Shown here: positions 1,132-11,396 of the stretch, piece by piece
Layout: every line of letters begins with the position of its first letter
Numbering within the stretch: position 1 is the stretch's first letter
DNA from: an uncultured Bacteroidales bacterium
GTDB lineage: Bacteria > Bacteroidota > Bacteroidia > Bacteroidales > VadinHA17
Length of the DNA stretch: 64,000 nucleotides
Assembly: GCA_963734885.1 (NCBI GenBank)
Contig: CAVTIJ010000002.1
Span: 259,977 to 323,976, forward strand
Reading direction: 5' to 3'
The notes under the pieces: model-generated
Told to the model about the DNA's origin: nothing
The model's input: the letters and a program-made list of their open reading frames with translations, nothing else
The model's database searches: none
Translations under genes and position numbers: made by a program

Positions 1132-1962
1132 ATGAAAAAACATCTTTTTTTATTTTTATTTCTGCTTGCATGTTTTGCTCCTATATTCGCACAGGAAGAT
1201 GTGGAAGGCAGCAAAGATTCTCCTCTATTCACCAGGATGCCCGGCTATCATATCTACCGGTACGATGACCTTCAGTTTGATAAGTATGAATTCAGGGTAA
1301 GTGACAGTAAGACCCAGATTGTCGAAGGACATCACCTTTTAATTATGTACGACCTTAATAATAATGTTCAGGCTCCAAGCCCACTTCAGATTGGAAGAAA
1401 TTATATAAATGCCATTAAAAAGATTGGAGGACAGCTGGTTTATGAATTTCAGGACCCGGGGGAGGATGTTGTTCTCAAAGTTATAAAGAACGGAACTGAA
1501 GTTTGGGCTTATATTACTGCGAACGGAAGCGGTTCTTACTCAATCAATCTTGTAGAAAAACAGGCAATGAACCAGGATGTGGTCGCTGATGCTAACAGTC
1601 TAATGAACAGCTTAAAAGAAACAGGCAAGGTGGCATTATATGGAATTTATTTTGATACTGGTAAATCTACTCTAAAACCTGAATCTGATCCAACATTGAA
1701 GGAGATGACAAAGCTGTTAAATGCTAATCCTGATCTTAAACTATACGTCGTTGGGCATACTGATAATGTTGGAGTCTATGAAACAAATATGCGATTATCA
1801 GTTGAAAGGGCCCTGGCTGTTGTAAACGCTCTGGTATCAAAGTATTCTGTTAATGCGGCACGACTCACTGCATGTGGAGACGGACCCACTTCCCCTGTTG
1901 CAACTAATGATACTGAGGAGGGAAAAGCACTCAATCGCCGGGTTGAATTGGTTAAAAAATAG
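1132..1962 (+). CDS. OmpA-family protein (exported, C-terminal OmpA-like peptidoglycan-binding domain)
   Basis: 276 aa. Signal peptide MKKHLFLFLFLLACFAPIFAQ. C-terminal YVVGHTDNVG...NRRVELV motif. The N-terminal half is homologous to the paralog at 26014-26841. Confidence 0.85.
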   Translation: MKKHLFLFLFLLACFAPIFAQEDVEGSKDSPLFTRMPGYHIYRYDDLQFDKYEFRVSDSKTQIVEGHHLLIMYDLNNNVQAPSPLQIGRNYINAIKKIGGQLVYEFQDPGEDVVLKVIKNGTEVWAYITANGSGSYSINLVEKQAMNQDVVADANSLMNSLKETGKVALYGIYFDTGKSTLKPESDPTLKEMTKLLNANPDLKLYVVGHTDNVGVYETNMRLSVERALAVVNALVSKYSVNAARLTACGDGPTSPVATNDTEEGKALNRRVELVKK

Positions 1963-2085
1963 GTATCAATACAATATTAACTTTATTTAACCATGATTAT
2001 ATTGCATTCCGGATTATGATTAAAATTTTCATTACTTTTCGTTTCATATAACCATGCAAGCTGTCGTACCTAAATCCATTTTCAA

Positions 2086-4884
2086 ATGAAAAAAATCAAT
2101 TGCTGTTACCTTTTCTTAATCATTCTGGTATTTTCATGCACAACCGAAAAAAAAGAAGCGCCTCTATCCATTCCATGGGAAAAATATACTTTGCCTAATG
2201 GTTTGACTGTTGTCCTCAATGAAGACAAATCCGATCCGATTGCTATTCAGGCAGTTTATTACCATGTTGGCTCCAGCCGTGAGGTACCGGGGAAAACCGG
2301 ATTTGCGCATCTTTTTGAACATATGATGTTTCAGAAATCCGAGAACGTGAAGGAAGATCAGTTCTTTAAAAACATACAGGGCGCTGGCGGAACTCTGAAT
2401 GGCAGCACCAATCAGGACAGAACCAATTACTTTGAAGTAATTCCGAATAACTCTCTTGAAATGGCAATCTGGATGGAATCCGACAGAATGGGTTACCTCG
2501 AGAATACTGTTACACGTTCAGCGCTTACCAACCAGCAAAACGTAGTGCAGAATGAAAAACGTGAAAGTGTGGATAATGCTGCTTACGGATTTGAAGATTA
2601 TCTTATCCTCAAAACCCTTTACCCGGTAGGTCATCCATACAGTTGGGATGTCATTGGGGATATGACTGATCTGACAAATGCAACTGTTGAGGACGTGAAA
2701 GCTTTCCACAAAAAATATTATTCTCCTAACAATGCTACACTTGTAATTTCCGGTAATTTCAACAAAGAGCAGGTAAAAGGATGGATAGAAAAATATTATG
2801 GCGAGATCCCGCAGGGAGAAGCTGTAGAAAAAAGATCCGCAATGCCTGTTAAGTTAGCTTCAACCGTAAAACTTTATCATGAGGATAATTTTGCAAAAAC
2901 TCCTCAACTCACTTTGGTGTTTCCATCAGTTGAGCGATATTCAAAGGACTCATATGCCCTTAACTTTCTGGGGCAGCTTCTTTCCGGAACAAAAAAATCA
3001 CCCTTGTATACTGTTCTTGTTAAAGATAAAAAACTTACATCGCGTGTTATGGCACGCAATGGCTCACAGGAACTTGCAGGAAGTTTCACAATTACAATAA
3101 ACGCAAACCCCGGGGTTAATCTCACAGATGTTGAAAAAGCAATTTTTGAAGGGTTCGCAAAATTTGAAAAAGATGGTTTTACAAATGAAGACCTCACTAT
3201 TATTAAGGCAGGATATGAAAGCCGCTTTTACAATTCTTTTGCCAGCATACAAGGAAAAGCATTTCAGCTTGCAGAGTACACAATGAATACCGGTGATCCG
3301 GGCTATTATCAGAAAGATCTCGCTTCTATTCAGGCTGTAAGTATGGAAGATGTCAAAGCTGCTTATGAAAAATATATTAAAGGAAAGAATTTCGTAGAGA
3401 CAAGCTTCGTCCCGAAAGGAATGGTAAATCTTATTGCTGAAGGTTCTATTAATGCTGGTATTGTTGAAGAAGATGTAACAAAAGCTGCTGAAGTCAAAAC
3501 GGAATCAGCTGTTGAAGAACCTGTAGTAAAGACAGTCACAAAAATTGACCGTTCAGTCATGCCTGCAGTAAGTGCAGATCCAACCGTGACAATCCCGGCT
3601 ATCTGGAAGGGGTCACTTTCAAACGGAATGAAAATATGGGGTATCAGCCAGAATGAATTGCCGCTTATCCAGTACTCGATTGTCATCAGTGGAGGACATA
3701 TGCTCGATAATGTTGCTAAAGCCGGTGTTGCTAACCTGGTTGCATCAATGATGAATGAAGGAACAAAGAACAAAACTCCTGAACAGCTTGAAGAAGCAAT
3801 AGGATTACTTGGCGCTACAATCAGGGTCAATTCCGGGAATGAAGATATTTCAATCAGTGTGAGCACAATGGCAAAGAATTTTGAAAAGAGTCTGGCTCTT
3901 GTCCAGGAGATTCTGCTTGAACCAAGATGGGATACAGTGCAGTTTCCATTAGCAAAAAGCCGTATAATAAACGGTTTAAAAAGAGATGCTGCCAGTCCTG
4001 ATTATCTTGCATCAAAAACACTCAATAAACTTATGTTTGGTGATAATATTCTGTCCATAAACGCAACAGGAACAGAGGAATCGGTCAGTTCAATTACAAT
4101 TGACGACCTGAAAGAGTATTACAGCAAGTACATTTCACCATCAATCAGCCGTTTCATTATAGCCGGTGATGCAGATTCAACAAGGATCAAAGCCGCTCTT
4201 GAAAATCTTAATACGAAATGGCAGGCAAAAGAAGTGGTTATTCCTGAAATTAACGTACCAGCAGCTCCTGAGAAATCACAGATATATTTTGTCGATGTTC
4301 CTGGTGCAAAACAATCTGTCATAGCCATTGGGGCTCCATCATTATCCAGACCGGATCCTGATTATTTTGCTGCAACAGTTGCGAACTATAAGCTTGGAGG
4401 ATCATTCAATGGTATATTCAATCTGATTCTAAGAGAAGAAAAAGGATTTACCTATGGCGCAAGATCAAATTTCAGCGGAGCCAGGAATTACGGAACATTC
4501 ATCGCAACATCCAGGGTAAGGACAAACTCAACAGTTGAATCTGTTACGATCTTCAAAAACGAGATGGAGAAATATTCCAAGACCATTCCGCAGGAGTATG
4601 TCGACTTTACAAAATCATCGCTTATCAAAGGAAATGCTCTGCGGTTTGAAACTCTTGGCAATCTTCTTGGTATGCTTAATACCATGTCGGCTTATAACCT
4701 GCCTGTTAACTATATCAAACAGGAAGAAGCAATTGTTAACGGGCTTACGGTTGAAAAGGATCTTGAACTTGCTAAAAAGTATATTAATCCGGCCAGAATG
4801 TACTATGTTGTTGTGGGTGATGCCAAAACGCAGATTAAAGATCTTGAGAAGGTTGGATTAGGGAAACCGGTATTGGTGAATTAA
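2086..4884 (+). CDS. M16 (pitrilysin/insulinase) family zinc peptidase, double-length
   Basis: 932 aa. Inverted zinc motif HLFEHMMF (HxxEH). The length fits two tandem M16 halves. Lipoprotein-like signal ILVFSC. Confidence 0.85.
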   Translation: MKKINCCYLFLIILVFSCTTEKKEAPLSIPWEKYTLPNGLTVVLNEDKSDPIAIQAVYYHVGSSREVPGKTGFAHLFEHMMFQKSENVKEDQFFKNIQGAGGTLNGSTNQDRTNYFEVIPNNSLEMAIWMESDRMGYLENTVTRSALTNQQNVVQNEKRESVDNAAYGFEDYLILKTLYPVGHPYSWDVIGDMTDLTNATVEDVKAFHKKYYSPNNATLVISGNFNKEQVKGWIEKYYGEIPQGEAVEKRSAMPVKLASTVKLYHEDNFAKTPQLTLVFPSVERYSKDSYALNFLGQLLSGTKKSPLYTVLVKDKKLTSRVMARNGSQELAGSFTITINANPGVNLTDVEKAIFEGFAKFEKDGFTNEDLTIIKAGYESRFYNSFASIQGKAFQLAEYTMNTGDPGYYQKDLASIQAVSMEDVKAAYEKYIKGKNFVETSFVPKGMVNLIAEGSINAGIVEEDVTKAAEVKTESAVEEPVVKTVTKIDRSVMPAVSADPTVTIPAIWKGSLSNGMKIWGISQNELPLIQYSIVISGGHMLDNVAKAGVANLVASMMNEGTKNKTPEQLEEAIGLLGATIRVNSGNEDISISVSTMAKNFEKSLALVQEILLEPRWDTVQFPLAKSRIINGLKRDAASPDYLASKTLNKLMFGDNILSINATGTEESVSSITIDDLKEYYSKYISPSISRFIIAGDADSTRIKAALENLNTKWQAKEVVIPEINVPAAPEKSQIYFVDVPGAKQSVIAIGAPSLSRPDPDYFAATVANYKLGGSFNGIFNLILREEKGFTYGARSNFSGARNYGTFIATSRVRTNSTVESVTIFKNEMEKYSKTIPQEYVDFTKSSLIKGNALRFETLGNLLGMLNTMSAYNLPVNYIKQEEAIVNGLTVEKDLELAKKYINPARMYYVVVGDAKTQIKDLEKVGLGKPVLVN

Positions 4885-4891
4885 ATATTTT

Positions 4892-4992
4892 ACCTCTGTG
4901 CAACTCTGTGCTCCTCTGTGTTCTCTGTGTAAGTTCTTAATAACTTTTTAGTTACACAGAGGAACACAGAGAAGACACAAAGGGCCACAGAG
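4892..4992. repeat. long imperfect hairpin of CTCTGTG/CACAGAG units (intergenic repeat family)
   Basis: Arms 4893-4932 and 4952-4992 are about 90% reverse-complementary around a 19-nt loop GTTCTTAATAACTTTTTAG, followed by TTTTATTTT. Confidence 0.8.
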
Positions 4993-5043
4993 TTTTATTT
5001 TGCCTCTATCTCATTTGCTGTTTTTAATAAAGATTATTTATTC

Positions 5044-5051
5044 TAAATTTG
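5044..5051 (+). promoter_or_regulatory. -7 promoter box (TAnnTTTG) upstream of tRNA-Leu
   Basis: TAAATTTG lies 64 nt upstream of the tRNA 5' end. Confidence 0.3.
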
Positions 5052-5114
5052 CAGCACTTGAAAAAGTCCACCGACTGCATGATGCAAGACAGCAGACTGC
5101 ACGACAAAATATTT

Positions 5115-5198
5115 GCCCGGATGGTGGAATGGTAGACACGCAGGACTTAAAATCCTGTGACCATTACGGTTGTGCGGGTTCAAGTCCCGCTCCGGGTA
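5115..5198 (+). tRNA. tRNA-Leu (anticodon TAA), type II with long variable arm
   Basis: 84 nt. Acceptor GCCCGGA/TCCGGGT, anticodon stem CAGGA/TCCTG, loop CTTAAAA, T-arm GCGGG-TTCAAGT-CCCGC. Confidence 0.9.
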
Positions 5199-5311
5199 CC
5201 CAGAGGCACAAGAGGTCAAAACTGACCTCTTGTTTCATTTTATGACATTCTGAAAACCCCACTAATTCAAAGGATGAGATGTACAGTAATTTTCAGGGAG
5301 AGGGTTGCAAC
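5194..5311 (+). repeat. direct repeat copy 1 (tRNA-Leu 3' edge plus downstream 113 nt)
   Basis: About 85% identical to 8113-8229. The first 28 nt, GGGTACCCAGAGGCACAAGAGGTCAAAA, are identical in both copies. Confidence 0.9.
5208..5240 (+). terminator. intrinsic terminator after tRNA-Leu
   Basis: 11-bp stem ACAAGAGGTCA / TGACCTCTTGT with loop AAAC, followed by TTCATTTTA. Confidence 0.65.
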
Positions 5312-5356
5312 AGGCGATCCTTCCCACTGACAGTCCATATACCAAAAGGTTTTTTA

Positions 5357-7873
5357 TTACTTTCCTGTCTGAATTTCAATCTCCCCAGCCATCAGTCCGT
5401 CAGATTCCGCTTTCAGGCTTATGATTCCTGAAGAAATGAATGGTCTTATTACAACAAGGGCTCTTCCTTTCCAGGTTTTTATTACAGGTCTATTTACACT
5501 TGTCATATCACTGGGATCCGCATTCCCTGATGCAACCTGCTCCCCATCGCCTGAAACTGTAATTCTGATCTGTCGGGATGCATCACTTATCAACTTCCCG
5601 CTTTTATCAACGATCTCCACCCGTACAAAGCAAAGATCATTTCTGTCAGCATTTATATCTGAACGATCTGCAATGAGCCGTACTCTGAAAGCTTCATCTG
5701 TGGTTTTAAGAGTTTTGGATGCGATTTCCTTTCCATTCACAAAACCAGTAGCCTTCAATTCACCTGATTGGTATGGAACCACAAATAATGCAATATATTT
5801 ATCTGCATCAGTCAAATCTTTTTCACCAACTGACTTACCATTCAGTTCGAGTTTAACATGTGAAGCCTTAGTAAAAACCCTAATCTGCAGAGGTTTACCT
5901 TCGTTTCCATTCCATGTCCAGCTTTGTTGTTCATTTGGCCAGCCCCAGCCGCTCAGGTTTTCTGCAAATCCTTCCGGGATTGGAGAATGTACGGTAATTT
6001 CCAGTTTACTGTTGTCCCATAGAACATCCCGGTAAAACATCTGAGGTTTTTTCTCTCCTGTTATATCAATATCTCCACATCCTGATAAGAAATAGGGCCA
6101 GGCAGATGGCATCTTGCTTATCACGTCAAAGATATTCACCCCTGCTGGTAATTTAAGCTCTGAGGGCATTTTGAAAGTTGATTTTTTGGCTTCAGGAACA
6201 ATAGTTGCACTTCCGACTGAAGCCTCACCAATGTAATCCATAGCTGACCAGACAAAATCCCCGATAACATAGGGAAATTTTTCAGCAGGCTTCCAGGAAT
6301 CGTATGCATCTCCCGGAAATGATTCTGAAGCGTACATAATACGTGAGGGATATTTTTCGTGATCAGATTCATATTTTGTCCAGGTATAGTTATAGCCCGC
6401 AACATCAAGTAATTCAATGGCATTTATCGTGTTTTTCCATCCACCCGGAGTAAATACTTCAGAGATTGCTTCCGTAACCGCCCGTGTATTATCAAGAGCC
6501 TTTACCTTGTCAACCAGCTGTTTGCCAATCAGCACACCATCCGGGGTACTACTTTCCGGAATTTCATTGCCTATGCTCCACATGATAATTGAGGGATGAT
6601 TTCTATCACGAAGCATCATATCGGTCAGATCCTTGTTCCACCATTCACTGAAAAACCTGGAATAATCATGAGGATTTTTATAGGACTCCCACATATCGGT
6701 AAACTCATCAATAACCAGAATGCCAAGTCTGTCGCAGGCATTCAGGAATGTTTCCGACGGAGGATTGTGCGCACAGCGTATTGCGTTGTAGCCATTGGCT
6801 TTCATAAGTTCTACCCTTCTTACTTCTGCCCTGTCAATGGCTGCCGAGCCAAGGAATCCATTATCATGATGCAAACAACCTCCTCTAAGCTTTACCGGTT
6901 TCCCATTTAGCAGAAATCCTTTTTCAGCTGAAAACTCAATTGACCTGATAGCAAATGTCTGATTGTATGTGTCCTTTAATTTATTATTTACTTCTACCAG
7001 TACTTCAGCTTTATAAAGGTTCGGGTTCTCAATAGTCCACAATAAAGGTTTTTTAACTTCAATTTGTTCGTTTGTGATATTCTCAGATTTCCCTGAAAGT
7101 ACAATGCTATACTTTGAAGTGCCTGCCGGATGGCCGTTATTATCTCTGATATTTATAGTAATTGTTGCATCGACTTCTTTTTCGCTTTCATTTCTGGTTG
7201 TGACGCCGACATGAGTAAATGCTGAATTCGCATTGATTACAGGAGTAGTAACGTACACTCCCCATTCTGCTACATGTACTGGATTGGTTATTATGAGATG
7301 GACATTCCTGTATATTCCTGATCCGGAGTACCAACGTGAGTTCCTTCCGGCATTCTCAACTTTAACAGCTATAACATTAACCTTGCCTGAAGGATTCAGT
7401 AATGCAGTTATATCGAACCAAAAGGGAGTGTAACCGTTTTTATGAATACCAGCTTTCGATCCGTTAACCCACACTTCTGATTCCATGTAGACACCATCGA
7501 AATTTATAACTACAGTTTTACCTTCCTCAGTTCTGTCAAGTGTAAAACTTTTACGATACCATCCGGTTCCTCCGATTACATGCCCGGTTGAATTCCCATT
7601 ACCGGGAGATTTCTTCGAAAAGGGGCCAACCTTGCCTGCTCCGTCTTCCCCTGCTAGTGGCATTATGCTGTAATCATGAGGAAGATCTACTGTCAACCAT
7701 TTCGAATCATCAAAACCTGTTTGCTGCGCTCCTTGTATTGAATCCCTGAGAAATTTCCATCCGGAATTGAATAGACGATCACGCTCCGGTTCTTTGTTTT
7801 GACTTTTTGCTGTATATAAAAATATCAGATTCAAAGGAATCAGCAGTACTAAAAACTTAAAGGTATTACTCAT
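5357..7873 (-). CDS. glycoside hydrolase family 2 (beta-galactosidase-like), exported
   Basis: 838 aa with a signal peptide. GH2 TIM-barrel motifs NAIRCAHNPPSETFLNACDRLGILVIDEF and WSIGNE. N-terminal sugar-binding domain pattern. Confidence 0.85.
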   Translation of the reverse strand: MSNTFKFLVLLIPLNLIFLYTAKSQNKEPERDRLFNSGWKFLRDSIQGAQQTGFDDSKWLTVDLPHDYSIMPLAGEDGAGKVGPFSKKSPGNGNSTGHVIGGTGWYRKSFTLDRTEEGKTVVINFDGVYMESEVWVNGSKAGIHKNGYTPFWFDITALLNPSGKVNVIAVKVENAGRNSRWYSGSGIYRNVHLIITNPVHVAEWGVYVTTPVINANSAFTHVGVTTRNESEKEVDATITINIRDNNGHPAGTSKYSIVLSGKSENITNEQIEVKKPLLWTIENPNLYKAEVLVEVNNKLKDTYNQTFAIRSIEFSAEKGFLLNGKPVKLRGGCLHHDNGFLGSAAIDRAEVRRVELMKANGYNAIRCAHNPPSETFLNACDRLGILVIDEFTDMWESYKNPHDYSRFFSEWWNKDLTDMMLRDRNHPSIIMWSIGNEIPESSTPDGVLIGKQLVDKVKALDNTRAVTEAISEVFTPGGWKNTINAIELLDVAGYNYTWTKYESDHEKYPSRIMYASESFPGDAYDSWKPAEKFPYVIGDFVWSAMDYIGEASVGSATIVPEAKKSTFKMPSELKLPAGVNIFDVISKMPSAWPYFLSGCGDIDITGEKKPQMFYRDVLWDNSKLEITVHSPIPEGFAENLSGWGWPNEQQSWTWNGNEGKPLQIRVFTKASHVKLELNGKSVGEKDLTDADKYIALFVVPYQSGELKATGFVNGKEIASKTLKTTDEAFRVRLIADRSDINADRNDLCFVRVEIVDKSGKLISDASRQIRITVSGDGEQVASGNADPSDMTSVNRPVIKTWKGRALVVIRPFISSGIISLKAESDGLMAGEIEIQTGK

Positions 7874-7948
7874 ATTAGCTATAGTGTTATTTTCAGAGTT
7901 CCTGACATCCTATTTTATGAAGAATACAGTTCCCCGGAGTTAACCTGC

Positions 7949-8110
7949 AATTTACTTGTTTATACTCACTCTTTTGCCTTCAACAGAAAACATTCCCATG
8001 ATATCACCACTAATAGTCTCGTCTTTCTTGACGAGTTTAAGATCAACATCGCCCTGACTTCCGGTAAAAGTAACAGTAGCCTGATCTTTGTCGATAGTTG
8101 TATTTGTCAC
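7949..8110 (-). pseudogene. possible 3' gene remnant (53 codons, no credible start)
   Basis: Open frame VTNTTIDKDQATVTFTGSQGDVDLKLVKKDETISGDIMGMFSVEGKRVSINK*. The frame hits TGA a few codons upstream, inside repeat copy 2. Confidence 0.3.
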
Positions 8111-8112
8111 TG

Positions 8113-8229
8113 GGGTACCCAGAGGCACAAGAGGTCAAAATCGACCTCTTGTTTTATTTTAGGACATTCTGAAACAGTCACAAATTCAAAAGATGAGAGA
8201 CATCTTAAATTTGAAGGAGAGGGTGCAAT
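8113..8229 (+). repeat. direct repeat copy 2 (homolog of the tRNA-Leu 3' edge and downstream region)
   Basis: See 5194-5311. It retains the terminator hairpin (ACAAGAGGTC / GACCTCTTGT, 8127-8152). Confidence 0.9.
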
Positions 8230-8287
8230 TTTATTAAATTCCAAAATCTTGTTGATATGAAACTTTATATTCATATATTTAATAAAT

Positions 8288-8295
8288 TAGCTTTG
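8288..8295 (+). promoter_or_regulatory. -7 promoter box (TAnnTTTG)
   Basis: TAGCTTTG lies 33 nt upstream of the ATG at 8328. Confidence 0.3.
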
Positions 8296-8327
8296 ATCTT
8301 TCTTCTTATATACTAATATTTATCAGC

Positions 8328-8987
8328 ATGGTAATTAAATCTATATTCTTAGCATTTGCTTTGCTTTCTGTCTCAACCATTTCAAATGGTCAGCAATCCG
8401 GCACGTTTACAGATCCGAGAGACGGGATAACTTACAAAACAGTTAAGATTGGCACACAGACATGGATGGCTGAAAACCTCATCACTACCAAGTTCCGGAA
8501 TGGCGATCCTGTTCCTGAAGCAAAAAAAAATGAAGAATGGGTAGTTAAAAAAGCTGCATGGTGTTATTATAACAACGACCCAAAAAACGGAGCAAAGTAT
8601 GGAAAACTTTATAACTGGTATGCTATGACGGATCCCAGAGGTCTGGCTCCTGCAGGATGGCATATGCCGGATGCCAGGGAGTGGCAGACACTAGCCACTT
8701 TTCTGGGAGGCATTGAAGCAGCAGGCAATAAAATGAAAAGCAAAAGCGGATGGGATGAAAATGGTAACGGCACCAATGAATGTGGTTTCTCAGGTCTGCC
8801 GGGTAGCCTGCGATACGATGACGGACAATTTAACGATATTGGCCGGATGGGGTATTGGTGGTCAACTACTCCTAATGTAATGCGTACTTTATCCTTCACC
8901 CTTAATCTTAGTAATAGTTATATGGGCTGGGGACAGGGACATGCAAACGAGACATACGGTTTTTCTGTCAGGTGTATAAAGGATTAA
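8328..8987 (+). CDS. FISUMP (Fibrobacter succinogenes major paralogous) domain protein, exported
   Basis: 219 aa with a signal peptide. Pattern FTDPRDGITYKTVKIGTQTWMAENL ... YGKLYNWYA ... GWHMPD..EW ... GYWWS is typical of TIGR02145-type domains. Confidence 0.8.
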   Translation: MVIKSIFLAFALLSVSTISNGQQSGTFTDPRDGITYKTVKIGTQTWMAENLITTKFRNGDPVPEAKKNEEWVVKKAAWCYYNNDPKNGAKYGKLYNWYAMTDPRGLAPAGWHMPDAREWQTLATFLGGIEAAGNKMKSKSGWDENGNGTNECGFSGLPGSLRYDDGQFNDIGRMGYWWSTTPNVMRTLSFTLNLSNSYMGWGQGHANETYGFSVRCIKD

Positions 8988-8999
8988 TTCCTTTTTCAT

Positions 9000-11396
9000 A
9001 TGCCCTATCCATTACAAAGATTAATCTTTGCTTTTTTCATTCTAATAAATGCTTCTCAGCATGGCGTTTGTCAGGATAGTCTTCTGATGCGTCAGCTGAA
9101 GCAAAGTAGATATCTACGGACAGTGATGAAGCCAGACTCCTCAGGGATGGGATTTTCACGCTGGAAAAAGAAAGAAATAATCCATTCGACCGCCTTGCAC
9201 CTCATAACTCAGTTTAATGATTTAAAAGTCAAGGGCCCCGGTAGTCTGAAAATTGCAAAAGACATTACGGTTTCAGGAGAGGGAAGTATACTGCTCGAAT
9301 CACCCACATCTCTTGCTGTAAAAAATCCAACAAACAGGTCGTATGCAACTTCCGAGATGATAAGACCGATCGATAATGAAAATTTGGAGAGCTTTAACCG
9401 GATCAGCGTTTGGGTTAAATTAGATGCACCCGGATTTTATTCCGCATTTGTCGGGGTAACGCTTTACAACCAGGGAAAGCATATTACTCCCACGCCAGGA
9501 CGTTTTGAAGGGCAGCATTTTATTACTGTATATCCCGGTCAATGGCAACACATTATATGGGAAATACCCGACCTGTATCGCGATAAGGTTACAGGTATTT
9601 CTGTAAGTATAATGCTTGGCGGTTCCCCGGAAGGAGCAAGTGATCATTTTAAGCTTTATATTGATAAACTGAGTATTGATGAGGTTGTCCCTGAATTATC
9701 CCGTGGATTTGATCTCAGGAAGAATTCAATCTCATACTGTCACAGCGGATATATTATTGGTGCAAGGAAACAGGCATTAGTGCAGAATGTTGACGACCCC
9801 CGCTTTCAGGTACTGAATGAAAACGGGAAAGTGGCTTTTGATGGTGTGGCGAAGAAACTTGAAAACGGATTCATGCTGATGGATTTCAGCTCGCTGGATG
9901 TTTCCGGTTTCTATATCCTTAAAACCGGTGCTGGTACTTCCGGTAAGTTTCCGATAGGTGAAAATGCCTATCTGTCATTAGCCTGGAATACCCTGAATTT
10001 CTTCTATGCCGAGCGTTGCGGTTATGATCAGCCGGGGATTCACCAGGTATGCCACAAGGATGTATTTTGTGTCCATCCCGATGGAAGACGCCTCTTAGTA
10101 AACGGCGGCTGGCACGATGCGGCTGATCTTACTCAAGGTACCGGCAATACTGCACGGGGAATTATATCAATGCTCAGATTGGCTAAAACAGTCGAGGCTT
10201 CTCATCCCGATCTTAATACCAGGCTTCTCGAAGAAGCCCGCTGGGGCCTCAACTGGTTGCTCGGTACACGTTTTGGCGATGGATACCGTGACGGCGGACT
10301 CATTATTGGGATCTGGACAGATAATATTATTGGTACAAAAGATGATATGGATACAAAAGCGACAAATGATCCTTTTGACAATTTTATTTCGTCGGTTGCA
10401 GCGGCGCTCGCAGTACCATATTATAGCTCAATTGATCCGGTCTTCTCAGATTGGTGCAGGAAGGCAGCTATCGAAGATTATGACTTTGCCGTAGAAAACA
10501 TGGCTCGGGTATTAAATCAAAAAAACGAAACAGAACTCTATTCAACGGCCACTGTTGCTTCAATGCATCTCTATCAGCTCACCCATGAGCAACGATATCT
10601 CGGAAATGCAGTCAGCTTTGCAGAGATAGTTATGGATTGTCAGCAACTCGAAAGACGGAAGGAATGGAGCATACCACTTCATGGATTCTTCTACGAATCA
10701 CGGGATAAAAAATGCCCCCTGGCATTCTTTCACCGCAGCAATGAAGAAATGATGATCGAGGGTTTATACATGTTGCTCAAAAATGCACCAGCACATCCCG
10801 AAGCGTCAAAATGGATGGCTTCATGCAAAGCTTATGCCGATTATCTGCACGATATTTCCAAAACCATTGAACCGTATGAAATTTTACCTGCAGCAGTTTA
10901 TCAGCTTAACAATTCGGATTTTAGCGGCATCTACCATGAGGGAGAAAAGATCGGTCTTCCTTCGATGGAGGAGTTTAACGCCCAGGTGAAAAATGGCATT
11001 TACCTTGGCAACGATTTTTACCTGCGCCGTTTTCCTGTAGCTTATCAGTTCCGTGGTTTTCATGCGGTACTTATGGGAAAAGCAAAGGCAGCATTTGTGC
11101 TTTCCGAATTATTGAATGATAAGGAATTAAAAGAAATTGCCACCCGTCAGCTCGAATATATTGTAGGATATAATCCCTTTGCCATGAGCACGATATATGG
11201 CGAGGGATATGATTATCCGATCCTTTACAGCGGGTATCTTGGTGATGTAGTCGGGGCAGTTCCTGTAGGGATTGAGACCTTTGAAAATGAAGATAAGCCT
11301 TACTTCCCGATGCAGGTAAACGCAACATACAAAGAAGTCTGGACCCACACTACAGCTTCAGTGATGTGGCTGCTATCCTATCTGGTAGCACATTGA
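9000..11396 (+). CDS. glycoside hydrolase family 9-like protein, exported
   Basis: 798 aa. AYLSLAWNTLNFFYAERCG, GGWHDAADL (compare GH9 GGWYDAGDH), YIVGYNPFAMSTIYGEGYDYP and C-terminal YKEVW resemble GH9 signature blocks. Divergent. Confidence 0.55.
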   Translation: MPYPLQRLIFAFFILINASQHGVCQDSLLMRQLKQSRYLRTVMKPDSSGMGFSRWKKKEIIHSTALHLITQFNDLKVKGPGSLKIAKDITVSGEGSILLESPTSLAVKNPTNRSYATSEMIRPIDNENLESFNRISVWVKLDAPGFYSAFVGVTLYNQGKHITPTPGRFEGQHFITVYPGQWQHIIWEIPDLYRDKVTGISVSIMLGGSPEGASDHFKLYIDKLSIDEVVPELSRGFDLRKNSISYCHSGYIIGARKQALVQNVDDPRFQVLNENGKVAFDGVAKKLENGFMLMDFSSLDVSGFYILKTGAGTSGKFPIGENAYLSLAWNTLNFFYAERCGYDQPGIHQVCHKDVFCVHPDGRRLLVNGGWHDAADLTQGTGNTARGIISMLRLAKTVEASHPDLNTRLLEEARWGLNWLLGTRFGDGYRDGGLIIGIWTDNIIGTKDDMDTKATNDPFDNFISSVAAALAVPYYSSIDPVFSDWCRKAAIEDYDFAVENMARVLNQKNETELYSTATVASMHLYQLTHEQRYLGNAVSFAEIVMDCQQLERRKEWSIPLHGFFYESRDKKCPLAFFHRSNEEMMIEGLYMLLKNAPAHPEASKWMASCKAYADYLHDISKTIEPYEILPAAVYQLNNSDFSGIYHEGEKIGLPSMEEFNAQVKNGIYLGNDFYLRRFPVAYQFRGFHAVLMGKAKAAFVLSELLNDKELKEIATRQLEYIVGYNPFAMSTIYGEGYDYPILYSGYLGDVVGAVPVGIETFENEDKPYFPMQVNATYKEVWTHTTASVMWLLSYLVAH

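Follow-up and report, generated by a model that had tools for sequence, protein, structure and literature searches.

Tandem recombinase-less remnants beside a tRNA-Leu(UAA) gene in an uncultured Bacteroidales bacterium: probable relics of an element family moved by a large serine recombinase

In staphylococci, the SCC and SCCmec elements insert at the 3' end of the rlmH/orfX gene by means of the CcrAB large serine recombinases (LSRs), for which two recombinase genes are typical. These elements accrete in tandem with adaptive cargo, and recombinase-less pseudo-SCC remnants persist between short repeated integration-site sequences of about 15–18 bp. In Bacteroides, mobilizable elements of the NBU1 type integrate into the 3' end of a tRNA-Leu gene. 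Here we describe a pair of direct repeats that begins at the 3' end of a tRNA-Leu(UAA) gene in a 64-kb stretch of DNA from an uncultured Bacteroidales bacterium (contig CAVTIJ010000002.1, positions 259,977 to 323,976; hereafter the window). The most probable reading, to which we assign a probability of roughly 0.7, is that the repeats mark two tandem, recombinase-less remnants of a family of elements that uses this tRNA gene and is moved by an LSR. The two copies would then be the homologous left ends of successive elements and not the products of one insertion or of a local duplication. The locus resembles SCCmec, which together with the tycheposons discussed below is its nearest counterpart, in its link to an LSR, in the use of the 3' end of a conserved gene and in its tandem remnants, but differs in the tRNA target, in a 118-nt module derived from the recombinase gene and in the phylum. 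It shares the phylum and the kind of target with NBU1, whereas the window repeats contain just 5–6 tRNA nucleotides and the LSR-derived module, with no tyrosine integrase between them.

Tycheposons are also cargo elements at tRNA ends, and successive entry pushes older ones inward to the island, as appears to be the case here (Hackl et al., bioRxiv 10.1101/2020.12.28.424599). The islands of Prochlorococcus contain several elements, partial tRNA separators, degenerate remnants and fragmented integrases, together with metabolic cargo of ecological relevance; 910 of 937 elements carry tyrosine recombinases, and a minority has an LSR (10.1101/2020.12.28.424599). In contrast, the putative driver here is an LSR, the repeat takes in just 6 bp of the tRNA, a diverged 22-nt pseudo-tRNA arm (the P arm) with the geometry of an attP-type attachment (att) site acts as separator, and the end of the element is built from the 3' end of the recombinase gene itself. 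Furthermore, the host belongs to the Bacteroidota, the cargo consists of glycoside hydrolases, efflux pumps and regulators, and no replication genes are seen in the LSR elements examined. The serine integrases of phages such as A118/LI, Bxb1 and phiC31 have in common with the enzymes described here the Resolvase and Recombinase domains, half-sites of about 25 bp, a shift of a 9-bp motif, and attP and attB sites without extended identity (PMC3783163). Unlike these phage systems, the present elements contain no phage genes, target a tRNA 3' end, carry metabolic cargo and seem to decay in place into arrays. Integron cassette arrays are alike in array form alone: here the enzyme is a serine recombinase, the segments hold 1 to 8 genes in both orientations, the separators are not imperfect palindromes that span the site, and no pairing of the ends of the repeat is found by eye or by folding. 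The literature on serine recombinases with tRNA-Leu or Bacteroidetes integration yielded no description of such a family, which, given incomplete coverage, is weak evidence of novelty.

The features of the window that matter for this comparison are as follows, where L- and P-numbers denote fetched related loci and proteins.

5115–5198, plus strand: tRNA-Leu(UAA) gene (Rfam, ARAGORN, synteny); its 3' end is the proposed left (B) arm of the attachment site.
5194–5199, plus strand: first copy of the core GGGTAC, the sole sequence common to left flanks of the tRNA type and of the P-arm type; the crossover presumably lies inside it.
5194–5311, plus strand: repeat copy 1, which scores 122.8 bits with the family profile (nhmmer) and would be the end module, on the P' side, of the element nearest the tRNA.
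5357–7873, minus strand: glycoside hydrolase family 2 (GH2) gene, 838 aa, with six GH2-related Pfam domains; probably the surviving cargo of element 1.
7952–8112, minus strand: remnant of a gene for a 127-aa signal-peptide protein, C-terminal 54 codons (comparison with L215).
8102–8118, plus strand: deletion junction, at which gene sequence ...TTTGTCAC is fused to TGGGGTAC, the last P-arm bases plus the core.
8113–8310, plus strand: repeat copy 2 (8113–8229) with its decayed continuation, the putative end module of the older element (nhmmer, 91.1 bits).

The initial annotation of this DNA, made from the sequence alone, had noted a direct repeat of about 118 bp, about 85% identical and opening with GGGTA in both copies. 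This holds, with an identity of 83% between 5194–5305 and 8113–8224 at a spacing of 2919 in a repeat search of the window. MAFFT alignment extends the match to about 5311/8229, and similarity starts at GGGTA with none further left. The identical first 28 nt are likewise real: the 28-mer GGGTACCCAGAGGCACAAGAGGTCAAAA occurs at exactly two places in the 64 kb, 5194 and 8113, and its chance expectation in shuffled sequence is 0 even with 3 mismatches permitted. The tRNA-Leu gene is placed at 5115–5198 by Rfam (RF00005, 61 bits) and at 5114–5202 by ARAGORN, with the anticodon taa (UAA). Because the gene ends at 5198 in the Rfam match, the repeat opens with the last five tRNA bases, GGGTA (5194–5198), including the discriminator. 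As had also been noticed, both copies contain a terminator-like hairpin with a T run (5208–5233 and 8127–8152) whose loops differ (terminator scan); the hairpins fold at about -17 kcal/mol with z about -5, and that of copy 1 now lies where it is predicted to serve as the tRNA-Leu terminator. Between the copies there are a complete GH2 gene and a short minus-strand frame (7952–8128) and nothing else, and the reported lack of an integrase there is borne out by open reading frame (ORF) and Pfam scans.

The repeat belongs to a family that recurs behind the same tRNA gene. Eighty species-level loci were collected by way of the M16 peptidase gene that precedes the tRNA. In most of these species the order p144, M16 peptidase, tRNA-Leu is kept, and the sequence behind the tRNA is hypervariable, differing almost everywhere. 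Among the sequences that recur there, type A is the window repeat, type B opens an element carrying RepL, primase and ParA genes, and type C is a hairpin of the GAGTGAGAG kind; other terminators recur as well. Type A is present in about a dozen of these genomes, at the tRNA or a few kilobases downstream, sometimes twice, and throughout in the orientation of the tRNA. Scanning metagenomes with a hairpin-internal pattern, in which both stem arms are fixed, added 120 further loci from wetland, peat and sediment samples. By profile search (nhmmer), at least 168 copies of the repeat, hereafter units, are found in 133 loci of uncultured Bacteroidales, and each begins at GGGTAC. The view of the repeat as a duplicated tRNA-downstream region does not hold; it is rather an end module borne by elements, present at more than 130 loci and derived from the 3' end of an LSR gene, as described below.

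The left flanks of the units fall into a few kinds. A complete tRNA-Leu precedes 41 of the 168 units, and the P arm GGTTGCAACTTTTGTCCGTTCG (22 nt; GGGTTGCAAC-type) stands directly before 58 of them. A small GC-rich hairpin interrupts the P arm in 9 further units. In 12, a conserved element end is followed by an exact 12–20-nt piece of the tRNA 3' end and then by the unit; what remains are units with other flanks, with a 5' truncation or at the edge of a contig. Two or more units in direct orientation, 1–10 kb apart, are found in about 25 loci, and one locus has mixed orientation. The cargo between units includes GH2, GH3, GH42, fucosidase, esterase, an RND efflux pump, oxidoreductases, regulators and toxin genes, and in none of the multi-unit loci does it include a recombinase gene. 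The first ~50 nt of the unit are very conserved, and the tRNA plus unit is 90–97% identical between genomes whose M16 proteins are just 70–79% identical. A viral origin was considered and rejected: the unit pattern has 0 matches in viral contigs, and phage genes are absent from the elements.

Several minor features accompany the units. GC-rich palindromic insertions (CCTGCCCGCCAGCCGGCGGG, GGTGCTGACCGCAAGCGTCAGTA) lie between the P arm and GGGTAC in L028 (14650–14700 and 21560–21610), L081, L139, L146, L154, L163, L166 and L123/L141, and similar small ones occur just behind the tRNA in L040, L041, L044 and L067. They look like repetitive extragenic palindrome (REP)-like miniature elements that favour the junction of the P arm or tRNA with GGGTAC. 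A gene of PF05635 ('23S rRNA-intervening-sequence protein') recurs about 50 nt to the left of units or P arms on the same strand in 11 loci (for example L016 13254–13604, L023 13281–13586, and L079 11971–12312 and 14947–15300) and also right behind type C hairpins; it may be the standard end gene of one element subfamily. Two tandem M16 paralogues precede tRNA-Leu in L012, L040, L041, L065, L077, L111, L153, L186 and L215, and the window has one. A long imperfect inverted repeat of CTCTGTG-like units at 4890–4995, between the M16 gene and tRNA-Leu of the window, gives spurious sub-threshold microRNA matches in Rfam. It resembles the type C hairpins behind tRNA-Leu or P arms in many relatives, and both look like a genome-wide class of simple-repeat terminator hairpins.

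The link between the unit and an LSR rests on position and on coding sequence. When ORFs near units are clustered, an LSR of about 507 aa is second in frequency to the M16 peptidase; in all 16 loci that have it, it stands to the right of the unit and is read from the opposite strand. Its domains are PF00239 Resolvase (E 1e-26 to 5e-27 in L078 and L201) and PF07508 Recombinase, and the YKRVSTDEQ motif of a resolvase-type catalytic domain is present. A PDB sequence search with the N-terminal domain matches TP901-1 integrase and the gamma-delta/Tn3 resolvases. Pfam and the PDB sequence search detect neither a zinc-ribbon nor a coiled-coil domain; a Cys-rich stretch (CPEH...C...YYLCC...C) lies at the place expected for a zinc ribbon in these proteins of 507–514 aa. 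The family has 1,767 members at E <= 1e-20 among 8,000 candidates scored, reaching down to about 49% identity in genera of the Cytophagia.

In L147 and L124 the LSR ORF reads through the unit (...KKKQEVDFDLLCRLVP; ...SSKKKQEVDFDLLCRLVP) and extends into the P arm (L147) or a tRNA fragment (L124). Because these C-termini align lengthwise with those of LSRs that do not overlap units (L185, L078), at roughly 55–60% identity over the last 60–66 residues as estimated by eye, the unit is genuine LSR coding sequence, namely the last ~40 codons on the reverse strand. The window copies retain this signature. A tblastn search finds an LSR C-terminus relic on the minus strand of copy 1 (62% over 34 aa, 5280–5179) and about 66 C-terminal LSR codons with a stop on the minus strand of copy 2 and its continuation (35–36% over 66 aa, 8310–8113). 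Beyond these relics of ~40 and ~66 codons, tblastn finds no LSR homologue in the 64-kb window, where tyrosine integrases outside the inter-copy segment were not searched for; therefore, the window holds remnants and not an autonomous element with its own recombinase. Among 148 units with an intact start, a near full-length LSR comes next in 5, a partial LSR in 7, a short LSR fragment in 31 and nothing detectable as LSR in 105, which we read as a decay series. A palindrome, GTTGCAAC, with three occurrences was tried as an attC-like signal or as one of a miniature inverted-repeat transposable element (MITE); it turned out to consist of codons (VAT / GC-I) of LSR relics, and no end-to-end pairing is seen.

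Two further observations concern the LSR gene. A 65-aa ORF without a Pfam match overlaps the LSR gene start in elements of the P0022 and P0016 types (L201 5458–5655; L209 9850–10047) and is a candidate directionality factor or regulator. The LSR subtype of 507 aa has, just past its stop and some 300 nt away from the real tRNA-Leu, a reverse-oriented stretch like a tRNA T-arm (GGAATCGAACCCAGAACC); it lies between the unit relics and the LSR stop codon in L078 (6560–6625), L185 and L155 and could be a relic of a different attachment site.

Intact and bounded elements allow the remnants to be interpreted. P0022, an intact LSR of 514 aa, is encoded on 15 contigs; in all eight places examined the order is M16, tRNA-Leu, unit, LSR, with the stop codon 2 nt past the unit. 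P0016, also intact, is found in the order P arm, GGGTAC, unit, LSR with no tRNA nearby, as would be expected for an excised element (attP) or for a tandem junction. L155 contains a bounded element of 8.1 kb that runs from tRNA-Leu through the unit, an LSR gene interrupted once and five cargo genes (a SnoaL-like gene, cyclopropane-fatty-acid synthase, short-chain dehydrogenase, Fe-S protein and DUF4142) to the P arm plus GGGTAC. A different terminator comes after this, and then genes for ECF-sigma and FecR. The tRNA plus unit of L155 match copy 1 of the window at 97% identity. Bounded segments that vary among relatives at one and the same tRNA, as in a tRNA island, are seen in L155, in L016/L023 and in L215, in line with the hypervariability among the 80 species.

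The sequences at the junctions resemble LSR attachment sites. The sequence at the tRNA-Leu end is GCGGGTTCAAGTCCCGCTCCGGGTAC, and the P-arm–GGGTAC–unit site is represented by GGTTGCAACTTTTGTCCGTTCGGGGTACCCAGAGGCACAAGAGGTCAAAATCG. In the fetched DNA there are 116 sites at which GGGTAC adjoins the P arm, and at 59 of them the unit comes next; at the others it is type C, type B or other terminators, the same variety as behind the real tRNA. The right partners are of at least four kinds in all, as expected if the right partner is whatever previously stood there. In the M16-anchored set, which is free of the bias of the pattern search, there are 18 P-arm–core sites in 11 of the 80 species, all of them downstream of tRNA-Leu on the same strand. 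From a point upstream of M16 as far as 'P arm-GGGTACCCAGAGG', L016 and L023 agree at about 95%; the cargo that they carry thereafter is unrelated. Because the tRNA end and the P arm share just GGGTAC and the types diverge to its right, the exchange point probably lies in or at GGGTAC. Counted from the GT of GGGTAC, a centre that is assumed, P-arm conservation stops at position 24 with the motif GGTTGCAAC at 16–24, and the related motif GGTTCAAGT lies at 11–19 of the tRNA arm, a 5-bp offset. In serine integrases, the attP half-site contains a 9-bp motif at 16–24 that is shifted 5 bp toward the centre in attB (Rutherford et al., PMC3783163). The sequences also show dyad symmetry around the core, CCGTTCGG-GGTA-CCGAACGG. 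With the centre so placed, three features fit an LSR attachment site: the shifted motif, the dyad symmetry and the very short stretch that the two partners share. The tRNA-end duplication had been taken as an island signature. Integration at the 3' end of tRNA-Leu is indeed indicated, although not of the classic tyrosine type, since just GGGTAC is shared.

The cargo of the window is shared with a divergent genome. A relative of the GH2 protein at 91% identity is encoded on two independent contigs, L215 (long-read) and L216 (short-read). In L215, tRNA-Leu is followed by the unit, a relic of the final 23 LSR codons, GH2, the 127-aa signal-peptide gene, an AraC-family gene, and P arm plus GGGTAC plus type C hairpin. 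Over window 5790–8110 the nucleotide identity to L215/L216 is 90.7%, against about 73% for the M16 genes, of which L215 even carries an additional paralogue. The cargo must therefore have been transferred between distantly related genomes, in which it now occupies one and the same site. Relatives differ in this arrangement, as the insertion reading of the initial annotation required: another element is found there in the closest species, L001 (M16 93% identical in aa), and the GH2 gene of L215 comes with a different right junction. GH2 homologues at 76–78% in L217–L219, considered as a source of an intact GH2-carrying element, were set aside because they lie in unrelated contexts without tRNA, unit or P arm.

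Homology with L215 stops at window position 8110, the edge of copy 2. The first codons of the ORF at 7952–8128 are borrowed from copy 2, and neither the 127-aa protein nor its remnant matches a Pfam family. The frame is thus cut at the edge of copy 2, as first described, but the cause appears to be a later deletion and not the insertion. At the junction the window reads GTATTTGTCAC|TGGGGTACC, L215 reads GTATTTGTCAC|CAGGTAAAG, and the P-core consensus is TTTTGTCCGT|TGGGGTACC. The simplest reading of these three sequences is a deletion of about 1.3 kb, sized from the L215 interval, through TTTGTC microhomology. Lost with it would be the 5' part of the 127-aa gene together with the AraC gene and most of the P arm, which would leave the remnant joined directly to the core of the unit behind it. 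The sequence to the left of copy 2 had been considered a degenerate P arm; this was abandoned because it is 90% identical to the 127-aa gene of L215, TTTGTC being the probable deletion microhomology. On the side of copy 1 the 118-nt unit is kept, and no LSR codons follow it.

These observations suggest the following mechanism. An element would consist of GGGTAC, the ~118-nt end module, an LSR gene on the opposite strand, cargo, the 22-nt P arm and GGGTAC. The 3' end of tRNA-Leu(UAA) would act as attB, to which the LSR would join the P-arm–GGGTAC–unit site of the element by strand exchange inside GGGTAC. After integration the unit would adjoin the tRNA, and its hairpin would replace the tRNA terminator. 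Newcomers would enter at the tRNA and shift older elements outward, and deletions would then strip out the recombinase genes. In the window, 5194–8112 would be element 1, which has lost its LSR gene and later its right end by deletion, and copy 2 (8113 onward) would be the end module of an earlier resident. The 83% identity of the copies would follow because they diverged as their elements did, and the first 28 nt plausibly stayed identical since they comprise a recombinase half-site and the left arm of the terminator stem. The earlier suggestion of the decayed end of a larger island is essentially right.

Several points weigh against this mechanism. An LSR gene and an intact P arm are both missing from the window, and its history has been pieced together from relatives. 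Recombination of attP with attL is not an expected reaction of LSRs, which is hard to square with serial entry at an occupied site, formally an attL. Contigs of the L209 type could be tandem junctions instead of free attP. The right half-sites show weak symmetry with the left ones and match them poorly. The P arm plus GGGTAC often stands before non-unit sequence even where the tRNA-proximal junction is of a non-unit kind, as in L079. Either the P arm is common to further element families, or an LSR works in trans, or some other mechanism plays a part. Behind most units, 105 of 148, nothing is recognisable as an LSR. Because the metagenome loci were fetched by a pattern inside the hairpin, copy counts and hairpin conservation are biased.

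A tentative variant, clearly less probable than the element mechanism, is that the tRNA-Leu locus works as a cassette platform, at which an LSR encoded elsewhere could act in trans to cut out any segment ending in P arm plus GGGTAC and insert it again. Recombinase-less pieces such as the GH2 segment of the window would then still be mobile and shuffled between species. The locus would be a functional analogue of integrons with a different enzyme and anchored at a tRNA, and the 3' end of the LSR gene would be reused as tRNA terminator and right half-site.

Another possibility, raised in the initial annotation and in our view unlikely as the sole explanation, is that a 2.9-kb segment was imported from a relative by homologous recombination anchored in tRNA-Leu plus unit and in another unit, with no site-specific event in this lineage. 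The high identity of tRNA plus unit across genomes with divergent M16 proteins provides a ready patch of homology, and tblastn finds no recombinase gene of the LSR kind in the window. The GH2 gene itself is a mosaic: residues 20–687 are 92% identical to L215, and the last ~150 (the Glyco_hydro2_C5 domain) are 47–61% identical. The breakpoint lies near 5790, window 5357–5790 corresponding to the reverse complement of L215 9585–10014. Because of this breakpoint, homologous exchange has acted at this locus, and the divergent C-terminal end indicates a second exchange that replaced it. However, import leaves unexplained the origin of units and P arms, the LSR-3'-end nature of the unit, the exact GGGTAC junctions and the fact that the same cargo is bounded by a P arm in L215. 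Homologous recombination is thus a possible route for the window segment, but could be a secondary one only, on top of a site-specific system.

A second, unrelated element family uses the same tRNA-Leu. Type B elements occur in at least 10 species (L001 13070–22796, L013 11150–20725, L004–L006, L009, L014, L015, L020 and L030). They start with AGAAAGCCTCGATTTATCGGGGCTTT and carry RepL-like, primase (Toprim/CHC2) and ParA-like genes, to which L013 adds AbiEii and an RND efflux pump. Their far end reads ...AATGAAGTCAAATGCAGTAAAATAGA, followed by an exact 12–20-nt copy of the tRNA 3' end, and a 444-aa tyrosine integrase (Phage_integrase) gene lies beside this end in 6 loci. With its tyrosine integrase and exact tRNA 3' duplication, type B is presumably of the NBU1 kind.

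It is very improbable that the window itself is a classic island of this kind, with the repeats as attL and attR from duplication of the tRNA 3' end and the integrase gene lost. Type B elements, with the integrase gene beside the tRNA 3'-end copies, show that such islands exist behind this tRNA, and in L013 and at 11 other sites the exact 12–20-nt copy directly precedes a unit, behind a conserved element end. However, copy 2 of the window shares just GGGTA(C) with the tRNA and not the 12–20 nt of a classic island, the characteristic left flank of the repeat family is the P arm and not a tRNA fragment, the unit is LSR-derived and LSR-linked, and type B sequence is absent from the window.

Equally improbable is a functional intergenic module, a terminator plus promoter or a small RNA, copied for its usefulness and spread independently of recombination. 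Such a module would account for the strong hairpin with its T run in both copies and for the conserved first ~50 nt, and the P arm, to our eyes, resembles a Bacteroidetes -7 promoter box. However, Rfam has no family that matches the unit, and outside the hairpin the unit folds unremarkably (z -1.8 and -2.8). Its sequence is the coding 3' end of LSR genes, its strict orientation and position behind one tRNA are unlike a general regulatory module, and the terminator role of the hairpin is already part of the LSR element reading. The idea of the P arm as a -7 promoter driving a short RNA was dropped on the same grounds of LSR coding sequence and an empty Rfam search. A mis-join producing the second repeat is practically negligible and has no point in its favour, since 83% identity is too divergent for a collapse or mis-join, L215 and L216 independently show the adjacency of GH2 and the 127-aa gene (L215, the sole one that reaches the tRNA, also shows tRNA–unit–GH2), and the same architecture is seen in more than 100 independent contigs.

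An LSR-driven element family would explain the hypervariable spot beside a conserved tRNA in widespread uncultured Bacteroidales of wetland, peat and sediment, and it would be a concrete vehicle for the movement of glycoside hydrolase and accessory genes between species. It also offers a testable pair of short attachment sites with a putative cognate LSR from the Bacteroidota, a phylum for which, to our knowledge, there are few tools for site-specific integration. On this reading, serine-recombinase elements can leave as their scar a duplicated tRNA end that lacks an integrase, and because just 6 bp of the tRNA are repeated, island finders tuned to tyrosine integrases or to long tRNA repeats would miss such scars.

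Two genes follow copy 2, and they are either cargo of the older element or chromosome.

8328–8987, plus strand: FISUMP-domain gene (Pfam).
9000–11396, plus strand: GH9 gene (Pfam).

A search of the whole 64 kb for a P arm or another unit, which could mark where the older element ends on its right, found none, and partial synteny of the region of a PQQ-repeat gene with L149 and L194 gave no right end. The GH9 protein is 90% identical to that of L218 13813–16206, on a contig without tRNA, unit or P arm; that contig also has a GH2 gene, 77% identical, a few kilobases off in a different arrangement. The L149 contig, which contains a truncated unit, matches window 12732–33795 at its positions 1166–6798, where homologues of the PQQ-repeat gene and of the genes at 19.5–20.2 kb and 30.6–33.8 kb are packed close together. 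Relative to L149, the window has about 5.6 kb and about 10.4 kb of extra DNA, and the variable region may reach far to the right of copy 2.

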